Below, one piece after another: positions 44,781-45,564 of a stretch of DNA of 64,000 nucleotides; the stretch's first letter is position 1; each line of letters starts with the position of its first letter. The notes under the pieces were generated by a model. It saw nothing but the letters and a program-made list of their open reading frames with translations, did not search any database and was not told where the DNA came from. The position numbers and the translations under genes were made by a program. This DNA comes from Candidatus Saccharimonadia bacterium (GTDB lineage Bacteria; Patescibacteriota; Saccharimonadia; Saccharimonadales; 2-12-FULL-41-12), in contig OY970327.1 of NCBI GenBank assembly GCA_963717365.1, forward strand, positions 991,752 to 1,055,751, written 5' to 3'.

Positions 44781-44808
44781 TTGACATATTTATTGAGTTT
44801 AGTATGAT
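44781..44808 (+). promoter_or_regulatory. Sigma70-like promoter upstream of the rpf-like gene
   Basis: TTGACA (44781-44786), a 16-nt spacer, then TATGAT (44803-44808). This leaves a leader of about 130 nt containing the hairpin TTGTGTTT/AAACACAA (44815-44848). Confidence 0.5.
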
Positions 44809-44943
44809 TAAAGCTTGTGTTTTTTCTATGTGAGGTGGAGAAACACAAATAAACCCAGCATTTGTATCCAAAAACAATTCAGAAATTTAATCCCAGTTTA
44901 ATTATTGGAGGATACTGTTATTGCTTGGGGTAGGAGGTACTAA

Positions 44944-45564
44944 ATGCGGTTACACGCACTCATAGCGGCGCTTTCAGTCGTGACAATTTTTGTTGCACTT
45001 GATAGTCAGTCAGCGCACGCGCAAACACAAAATGAAACACCAAAACCCGCCACAATGGTGGCGGTGAATCCAGGCGACAGCCTAACTAAAATTGCGGCGG
45101 CTCACGGCACGACGTATGTACGTCTGTACGATGCTAACGTGCAAATTGAGCATCCGGATATTATTCATCCGGGGACTAATCTGCGCGTACCAACCGCCGA
45201 GGAAGTTCTGCCGAGTAGGCCGTTGCCATCCCCGCCTGTTGCTGCACAACCAGCCCAGCGTAACGCAACTGCTCAACCAAAGGCTCAGCGTCAGGCAGCA
45301 GCTCCAACATCAACCGGAAGCGTAGATGGCGGAGTTTGGGATCGGCTCGCCCAGTGTGAGTCTGGGGGGAACTGGTCTATCAATACTGGTAATGGCTACT
45401 CGGGCGGATTACAGTTTTCTCAATCTAGTTGGCGTGGAGTTGGCGGCAGCGGCTTAGCTAGTCAGGCTAGTAAAGCTGAGCAAATTGCTCGTGCTGAAAT
45501 GCTCAAAGCCCGACAAGGCTGGGGTGCATGGCCAGCTTGTACGGCCAAACTTGGGATTCGCTAA
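44944..45564 (+). CDS. rpf: Secreted LysM + resuscitation-promoting-factor (Rpf) transglycosylase-like protein
   Basis: Signal peptide ending AHAQ. Lys[28 protein letters not shown]...GTNLRVP. Rpf core [32 protein letters not shown]...GWGAWPAC. Confidence 0.85.
   Translation: [206 protein letters not shown]

Follow-up and report, generated by a model that had tools for sequence, protein, structure and literature searches.

We analyzed a stretch of 64,000 nucleotides (nt) of Candidatus Saccharimonadia DNA (contig OY970327.1), called the window in the following, in which an original prediction had noted a gene for a muralytic protein of the Rpf type (resuscitation-promoting factor) behind a long leader. 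Judged by its sequence, the segment from 44781 to 45624 is a self-contained monocistronic unit. It consists of a sigma-70-type promoter, a structured leader of ~130 nt, one open reading frame (ORF; 44944-45564, plus strand) for a LysM-Rpf protein of 206 amino acids (aa) and a terminator-like hairpin. Selection constrains the nucleotides of the leader more than those of the coding sequence (CDS), and compensatory changes preserve its four helices.

The LysM-Rpf unit and its structured leader

The promoter named in the original prediction (TTGACA-16-TATGAT, 44781-44808) is present with 11 of 12 consensus matches in a promoter scan, and its position is kept in all 31 related leaders. Also as predicted, a leader of ~130 nt lies upstream of the CDS. 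It extends from roughly 44813 to 44943, its start being placed from the promoter. Compared with the window, related loci have 67-91% identity in the leader and 63-79% in the CDS; the values are 38-55% at third codon positions and 50-64% over the 160 nt that precede the promoter. Conservation extends from the -35 box as far as the ATG; farther upstream, the aligned regions of the relatives diverge. Promoter and leader accompany the LysM gene into differing, unrelated neighborhoods.

A covariance model (R1) was built from nine leaders of the window subgroup. In each of 19 further loci, among them Apf-type ones (see below) and divergent ones at 49-56% protein identity, it has a single full-length match, placed immediately 5' of a LysM gene. 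There was no other match in 291 kb, nor elsewhere in the window with filters off, and a search of 72 rpf loci from outside Saccharibacteria (681 kb, almost all actinobacterial) gave none at E ≤ 10. The leader is confined to Saccharibacteria-type DNA. Over the 28 R1 matches, 92% of cells pair, compared with 42-63% for slid partners, and 20 of the 23 pairs change on both sides; none of 500 shuffles reaches the observed values. For P1, the first helix, the 28 leaders show 92.5% of paired cells, with two-sided changes in 8 of 11 pairs. The nine-sequence subgroup gives 92.9% of paired cells (42-62% for slid partners), with compensatory changes in the other three helices, P2, P3 and P4.

Single-sequence folds, which are independent of any alignment, contain P1 in 33 of 33 leaders and, in most of 27 leaders, one long hairpin of the same layout between P1 and the Shine-Dalgarno (SD) sequence. 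The folds of this P1-SD segment have a mean z of -2.07, with 17 of 27 below -2; from group to group, the helices are entirely different in sequence. RNAalifold recovered P1, P3 and P4 from a plain MAFFT alignment of the close subgroup. The whole leader of the window folds unremarkably as a single sequence (z = -0.87), yet the comparative evidence is strong, so that the structure is more than chance. Two features of structured cis-regulatory leaders in general were found: a constant placement with respect to one class of genes, and compensated helices, the latter in a model-fitted alignment that leans to structure.

The original prediction had described an 8-bp hairpin at 44815-44848. Its location holds, but the helix, P1, has ~14 bp with one bulge and is the first of four. 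P1 begins 6-7 nt past the -10 box, 0-4 nt from the inferred 5' end, and its distance from the -10 hexamer is constant across all leaders. Only the purine arm of P1 is conserved in sequence; the other arm varies and is still complementary, including G-U pairs. The conserved tract resembles an SD sequence and lies ~105-115 nt upstream of the true start codon. All 29 occurrences of GUGAGGUGGA in 316 kb of Saccharibacteria-type DNA sit in such a leader with promoter context. P2 to P4 form a long irregular hairpin that ends just 5' of the true SD, whose GGAGG is kept in all leaders and is mostly unpaired in minimum free energy (MFE) folds. Downstream of the gene, the fold of 45560-45660 reaches -35.6 kcal/mol (z = -3.48). 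This strong hairpin closes the unit and thus suggests that the gene is monocistronic; a simple terminator scan gave no call there, since the T run is short.

Features of the LysM-Rpf unit in the window (TSS, transcription start site)
Feature	Position	Strand	Evidence
-35 hexamer TTGACA	44781-44786	+	promoter scan; TTGAC invariant in 31 related leaders
-10 hexamer TATGAT, within invariant block GTTTAGTATGATTA of the window subgroup	44803-44808	+	promoter scan, leader alignments
Structured 5' leader RNA	44809-44943	+	model R1, 132 bits; TSS inferred at ~44812-44815
P1, 5'-terminal hairpin, ~14 bp, one bulge	44815-44848	+	single-sequence folds; pair counts
Invariant purine-rich SD-like apex GUGAGGUGGA in P1 loop and 3' strand	44830-44839	+	leader alignments
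P2, 5' strand CCCAG (partner 44925-44929)	44854-44858	+	folds; 3 of 3 modelled pairs change on both sides
P3, 5' strand GUAUCC (partner 44910-44915)	44864-44869	+	5 of 5 pairs change on both sides, 28 leaders
A/U-rich asymmetric internal loop, 5' side	44870-44892	+	recurs in single-sequence folds of other groups
P4, inner hairpin CCAG-UUUAAUUA-UUGG (44893-44896 with 44905-44908)	44893-44908	+	CG to UA and GU/AU/GC changes
P3, 3' strand GGAUAC	44910-44915	+	alignment-based folds, pair counts
P2, 3' strand UUGGG	44925-44929	+	folds, pair counts
Shine-Dalgarno AGGAGG, 6 nt 5' of ATG, 2 nt 3' of P2	44932-44937	+	sequence
CDS, secreted LysM-Rpf protein	44944-45564	+	ORF, Pfam, homologues, NCBIfam, PDB matches
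Predicted Sec signal peptide, aa 1-26 (...SQSAHA/QTQ)	44944-45021	+	sequence inspection alone
LysM domain, aa 41-83	45064-45192	+	Pfam PF01476, E 5.4e-10
Pro/Ala/Gln-rich linker, aa 84-130	45193-45333	+	sequence; GC 0.60, GC at third codon positions (GC3) 0.34
Rpf-type transglycosylase-like catalytic domain, aa 131-199, with Cys138, Glu139, Cys199	45334-45540	+	PF06737, E 6.8e-30; RpfB 1xsf/5e27, E 2e-27
Terminator-like hairpin, core GGGGUCCAG/CUGGCCCC, then GUUGUUUGG	45579-45624	+	fold of 45560-45660

Two families of LysM genes behind one leader

A first metagenome pattern, which demanded the full -10 block of the window subgroup, gave no matches; a relaxed, leader-only DNA pattern was used instead and gave 21 metagenome loci. 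All 17 loci with at least 390 nt downstream carry a gene for a signal peptide and LysM, which starts 155-200 nt past the -35 box. Some of the leader-bearing genes encode LysM-Rpf proteins, and in others a Cys-rich C-terminal domain replaces the Rpf domain. This Apf-type class was found behind the same promoter and leader at nine loci (L091, L095, L098, L099, L100, L104, L105, L110 and L111). In its proteins, signal peptide, LysM and linker are followed by a Cys-rich domain like the C-terminal domain of the aggregation-promoting factor (Apf), with the motif GCGDNSYA..HESGC..NGCYGIGQ..KYGGWAGAY.FW.SHGWW. The domain matches NF052397 with 50.6 bits (cutoff 40) and has no Pfam match, LysM being the sole Pfam domain of these proteins; the cutoff of the full-length Apf equivalog was missed (55.9 against 170 bits). 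Like the Apf proteins of Lactobacillus (NF052397/NF052398), this class combines LysM with an Apf C-terminal-like domain. The domain is Cys-rich in Saccharibacteria, however, and the gene of the window has an Rpf module instead.

Apf-type proteins with a taxonomic name belong to Saccharimonadales or Saccharibacteria. After them, LysM-Rpf proteins come closest; these have the N-terminal 78-86% in common with the Apf-type proteins at 50-56% identity. This indicates that the two classes are paralogous and that the C-terminal module was exchanged. As far as the sequence comparison goes, everything from the promoter through leader, signal peptide and LysM to the linker was kept in both paralogues, and the C-terminal part sets them apart, being Rpf in one and Apf-like in the other.

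In Apf-type leaders (L099 at ~2520-2560 and others), the inner hairpin is rich in GC and a run of four U comes 2-4 nt behind it, an arrangement resembling a terminator. The U tract doubles as the 3' strand of the long helix; the leader of the window lacks such a feature. A terminator or attenuator as a general property of the leader was rejected, since the GC-rich inner hairpin with U4 occurs in Apf-type leaders and in none of the window type. Transfer RNA (tRNA) genes lie at most ~1 kb from the leader-LysM unit at six loci (L088, L091, L093, L095, L099 and L100), Rpf-type and Apf-type alike. In the metagenome-derived L082 (~2465), the ATG of the Rpf gene reads ATC and the gene call begins at a GTG farther downstream, which may reflect an error of sequencing, a start codon outside the canonical set or decay of this copy.

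In the window, a gene block on the minus strand (41868-44639) diverges from the Rpf gene. It encodes a receiver-only response regulator of 124 aa, a cytoplasmic PAS histidine kinase (best NCBIfam match of the PnpS/WalK type, far under the cutoffs), a small ORF and a multi-pass membrane protein of 327 aa without family. The gene order of this block is repeated in L081, L082 and L084 and is missing from most other leader-bearing loci. Directly downstream of the unit lies an ORF of 218 aa (45658-46314, plus strand) without Pfam or NCBIfam family, which has a counterpart in L081 only. It is followed by a DUF4383 gene (46403-46795). No further copy of the leader and no Rpf or Apf paralogue was found within the 64-kb window.

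The LysM-Rpf protein and its relatives

The catalytic core named in the original prediction, placed behind a signal peptide, a LysM domain and a Pro/Ala/Gln linker, was recovered by Pfam (PF06737, PF01476), by alignment with structures of the Protein Data Bank (PDB) and by inspection. The protein has a true Rpf-type catalytic domain. PF06737 (Transglycosylas) scores 104 bits against a gathering score of 27, and PF01476 (LysM) 39.5 bits against 20.9. The PDB matches of the catalytic domain are the catalytic domains of RpfB, RpfC and RpfE of Mycobacterium tuberculosis, at E 2e-27 to 5e-20, and the motifs QCESGGNW and WPAC are kept between these structures and the protein of the window. The predicted catalytic Glu139 is intact within a CE(S/A)GG motif and aligns with RpfB (1xsf/5e27), as do Cys138 and Cys199 with the disulfide pair of RpfB.

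The best partial NCBIfam match is ResusProRpf. The cutoffs for whole proteins were missed for ResusProRpf (NF046106; 119.8 against 180 bits) and for RpfC (NF046107; 79.8 against 200 bits), as the catalytic domain alone matches. Like the Rpf proteins of actinobacteria (RpfB, RpfC and RpfE of M. tuberculosis, Rpf of Micrococcus luteus; PF06737), the protein has a catalytic domain that aligns end to end with that of RpfB, with Glu and both Cys kept. It is likewise predicted to be secreted and paired with a peptidoglycan-binding module, and the identity of the domain to actinobacterial Rpf domains is 65-78%. It differs from them in its origin from Saccharibacteria, in the position of LysM N-terminal to Rpf, in staying below the NCBIfam Rpf and RpfC cutoffs, and in the different, lineage-specific leader RNA of its gene.

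The protein is a further member of a known, database-annotated family. Homologues number in the thousands, and the best 120 are all full-length LysM-Rpf proteins at 55-85% identity. Few of these 120 are named; of those few, nearly all are assigned to 'Candidatus Saccharimonadales' or 'Saccharibacteria' and one to Limnocylindrales. Existing annotations of homologues read, for example, 'transglycosylase family protein' or 'resuscitation-promoting factor RpfB'. Across Saccharibacteria, the gene is common, its architecture unchanged at 49-85% identity, and a lineage-specific leader RNA goes with it. No paper on Rpf in Saccharibacteria or Patescibacteria was found in a literature search. An Rpf domain also occurs in a Chloroflexota-class metagenome-assembled genome (MAG) with 67% GC, a Limnocylindria MAG (L040, 5001-5360; also P0097), where it has no such leader. 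Thus, Rpf is not strictly actinobacterial.

The original prediction had proposed a phylogeny of the Rpf domain. In a neighbor-joining tree of 101 Rpf domains (79 columns), the Saccharibacteria sequences are nested among actinobacterial ones. The affinity to actinobacterial Rpf proteins therefore stands, but the monophyly of the Saccharibacteria sequences has no support (bootstrap ~0). The distance of the Rpf domain of the window is 0.26-0.29 to Nitriliruptorales, Nesterenkonia and Citricoccus, compared with 0.28-0.36 to other Saccharibacteria. Among the fetched loci from outside Saccharibacteria, nearly all actinobacterial, 13 have the domain order Rpf-then-LysM and two have LysM-then-Rpf, namely L007 of Nitriliruptorales and L017 of Acidimicrobiales. 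Over 163 full-length columns, these two were not separable from the Saccharibacteria set (bootstrap of the Actinobacteria/Saccharibacteria split 0.35). With 69% and 75% GC, both contigs are truly GC-rich, and in neither does the gene stand out from its surroundings. By sequence, the two are candidate partners of an inter-phylum transfer. The order LysM-then-Rpf is native in these high-GC lineages as well, so that the transfer may have run in either direction.

The window has 42-47% GC. At 0.541, the overall GC of the LysM-Rpf gene is the highest of the 48 ORFs in the window (z = 3.1), whereas its GC3 of 0.43 is ordinary (0.41 +/- 0.05 for the ORFs of the window, z = 0.38). The high overall GC is due to the Ala/Gly/Pro-rich amino acid composition, and a recent horizontal transfer was therefore rejected on grounds of composition.

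Action of the leader, origin of the family and role of the enzyme

Riboswitches of the ydaO/yuaA type, which respond to cyclic di-AMP (c-di-AMP), precede some actinobacterial rpf genes and other genes for wall hydrolases. The leader of the window resembles them as a long structured leader before the gene of a secreted wall hydrolase. In contrast to them, it lacks a pseudo-two-fold architecture and does not sequester its SD. A scan with covariance models, as suggested in the original prediction, which had seen no ydaO in the leader, bore this out: no Rfam 15 family, ydaO included, was found on the correct strand at E ≤ 10 in 44600-45100 or 44800-44950, where only wrong-strand noise appeared. 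ydaO and all other known riboswitches were rejected on these scans. Likewise, Rfam 15 gave nothing at E ≤ 1 in 14 loci, nothing at gathering score in 13 loci and no match on any Apf-type leader. For comparison, ydaO was found at gathering score in none of 14 actinobacterial rpf loci scanned.

Weinberg et al. (2017; PMC5737381) described candidate structured RNAs that lie in the 5' untranslated regions (UTRs) of genes with a LysM domain; one of these RNAs comes from TM7. For these lysM motifs, that survey suspected a link to c-di-AMP but saw no binding, and it gives neither ligand nor mechanism. The leader shares the setting of lysM-TM7, the 5' UTR of a LysM-domain gene in TM7/Saccharibacteria, and resembles the motifs described there as a structured, candidate cis-regulatory RNA. 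Among them, lysM-Actino (RF03090) is absent from the window and the Saccharibacteria loci, whereas the same model scores 242 bits in Rothia mucilaginosa (L030, 4701-4913), directly upstream of a gene for a short secreted Rpf-domain protein. This RNA of Rothia is GC-rich, 215 nt long and without resemblance to the leader of the window. A further RNA in the window, LOOT (RF03000; 33907-34029, minus strand; 77.8 bits, gathering score 46.4), is a small RNA motif from the same survey (PMC5737381); its presence, like the names of the closest homologues, agrees with an assignment of the DNA to Saccharibacteria (Saccharimonadales). Taken together, the leader is a structured RNA with good support, uncatalogued in Rfam 15, and it probably adds a variant to the 'lysM' orphan leaders.

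On balance, we consider it fairly probable that the LysM-Rpf unit carries a cis-acting leader which co-regulates two secreted wall proteins and that the family is an old one. The leader itself is most likely a cis-acting post-transcriptional element; it would act after transcription start on the mRNA of both protein families. At the 5' end of the mRNA, P1 would shield the transcript from 5'-end-dependent decay, like the 5' hairpins of ompA and aprE, which stabilize their mRNAs. The invariant SD-like tract GUGAGGUGGA would bind a trans-acting factor, either the 30S subunit, as in STAB-SD, or a protein, and the long P2-P4 hairpin would place P1 beside the exposed SD. The 5' stem-loop of Bacillus subtilis aprE and the STAB-SD of cryIIIA are 5' mRNA stabilizers of monoderm bacteria. 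The leader is like them in its hairpin at the (here presumed) extreme 5' end of a long leader, in its upstream SD-like tract and in preceding a gene for a presumably abundant secreted protein. It is unlike them in that the tract is partly paired in the hairpin and a conserved long second hairpin follows. This likeness is a lead, not a test.

Several points weigh against this interpretation. Covariation is modest within the close subgroup, and the pair counts of the 28 leaders come from a model-fitted alignment that is biased towards structure. For the divergent Apf group, RNAalifold on a plain MAFFT alignment gave P1 only. The 21 metagenome leaders were fetched by a pattern that fixed promoter, GTG and apex, so that their invariance at these sites is circular. 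The TSS, and with it the 5'-terminal position of P1, is extrapolated from the promoter. The SD-like tract is partly paired in a stable hairpin (-8 to -22 kcal/mol), which disfavors simple binding of the 30S subunit, and no candidate protein that binds GUGAGGUGGA was identified. Concerning the enzyme, the evidence does not separate the own wall from the host wall as substrate.

Other explanations of the leader were weighed against the same data. A riboswitch for a small molecule, be it c-di-AMP or a metabolite derived from wall or host, that switches the wall enzymes would account for a covarying multi-helix structure with an invariant, unpaired or semi-paired block. It would also fit the association with LysM/Rpf wall hydrolases, which is typical of ydaO and was the motive for the lysM motifs (PMC5737381). 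We regard it as improbable all the same: there are no Rfam riboswitch matches, the helices and loops beyond P1 vary freely in sequence and length between groups, which speaks against a conserved pocket, no unpaired core other than the P1 apex is conserved, and neither a consistent SD-sequestering alternative fold nor, in the window, a leader terminator is present. In addition, the survey saw no binding of c-di-AMP by the lysM motifs that it describes (PMC5737381). Should the leader be the lysM-TM7 motif already described, it would be nothing new. Phylum, gene class and position in the 5' UTR agree with those of that motif (PMC5737381), and the Apf-type partners with LysM as their only Pfam domain fit the name 'lysM'. 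However, no Rfam 15 family matches the leaders, although the sister motifs LOOT (RF03000) and lysM-Actino (RF03090) are contained in it; for lysM-TM7 itself this null result is subject to the model's unconfirmed presence in the Rfam copy used. We hold the identity of the two to be unlikely on this comparison, which was made through Rfam scans. It is very improbable that a transcription factor, such as one of the neighboring two-component system, recognizes the conserved block as a DNA operator. The element does lie directly 3' of the promoter, and a PAS histidine kinase and response regulator stand upstream in four loci. Yet this response regulator has no DNA-binding domain and the kinase synteny is missing from most leader-bearing loci. 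Moreover, only the GUGAGGUGGA arm is conserved while the other arm stays complementary through G-U pairs, which exist in RNA only; this favors a recognition site at the RNA level. Two further candidates were tried and rejected. For a leader peptide, an upstream ORF (uORF) could begin at the ATG or ATT behind the SD-like GGAGGAUAC; its start codon, reading frame and stop are not the same from locus to locus, however. A switch in which occupation of the purine tract lets the pyrimidine strand of P1 pair with the SD does not hold as a general mechanism: masking the apex produced this pairing in only 4 of 23 leaders, and the SD is mostly free, with at most two of its five bases paired in the MFE fold of 19 of the 23.

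As to the origin of the gene, the original prediction held that it may have been acquired from the actinobacterial host, whose wall the exported enzyme would cut or 'resuscitate' for attachment or feeding. We consider this rather unlikely. To our knowledge, all cultivated Saccharibacteria have hosts among the Actinobacteria. The predicted secretion, the LysM domain, the nesting among actinobacterial Rpf domains, some of them as close as those of other Saccharibacteria, and the domain order shared with truly high-GC contigs of Nitriliruptorales and Acidimicrobiales would be in line with such an acquisition. LysM proteins of oral TM7 have also been proposed as host-attachment factors (PMC7739484). 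Nothing, however, points to a current host. GC3 is ordinary, Saccharibacteria carry the family widely, together with a lineage-specific leader and in partial synteny, and no bootstrap-supported split of the two phyla was obtained in either direction, so that a recent acquisition from the host is not supported. The data rather suggest that the family is old in Saccharibacteria and that it is tied to the actinobacterial Rpf proteins by ancient transfer, once or more often and in either direction.

In known contexts, Rpf and Apf act on the wall of their producer, which also counts against an enzyme directed at the host. The LysM domain would bind peptidoglycan and the Rpf domain would cleave glycan strands like the Rpf proteins of actinobacteria. 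We lean slightly towards an action on the organism's own wall in growth and division, whereas an action on the host wall appears doubtful; an autolysin role on the own wall is at least as likely as the latter. A more far-reaching idea is that the leader represents a Saccharibacteria-specific class of regulatory RNA not catalogued before. It would sense a wall or host signal or bind a regulator via the GUGAGGUGGA hairpin, and would jointly switch on Rpf-type and Apf-type LysM enzymes when the epibiont meets its host or divides on it. We give this idea little credence.

Little is known of how Saccharibacteria, which are obligate epibionts with tiny genomes, remodel their own wall or break through that of the host. 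Muralytic enzymes of the Rpf type are a hallmark of the actinobacterial hosts, and the analysis shows the gene for such an enzyme to be long established and widespread in Saccharibacteria. The structured RNA ties LysM-Rpf to a second secreted LysM family and points to a small post-transcriptional regulon of wall enzymes. With its coordinates, a model and 28 homologues, this RNA is open to tests in those few Saccharibacteria that are genetically tractable. The unsolved 'lysM' orphan leaders gain a further case; here, structured leaders without relation to one another seem to have arisen in three phyla for one class of genes.

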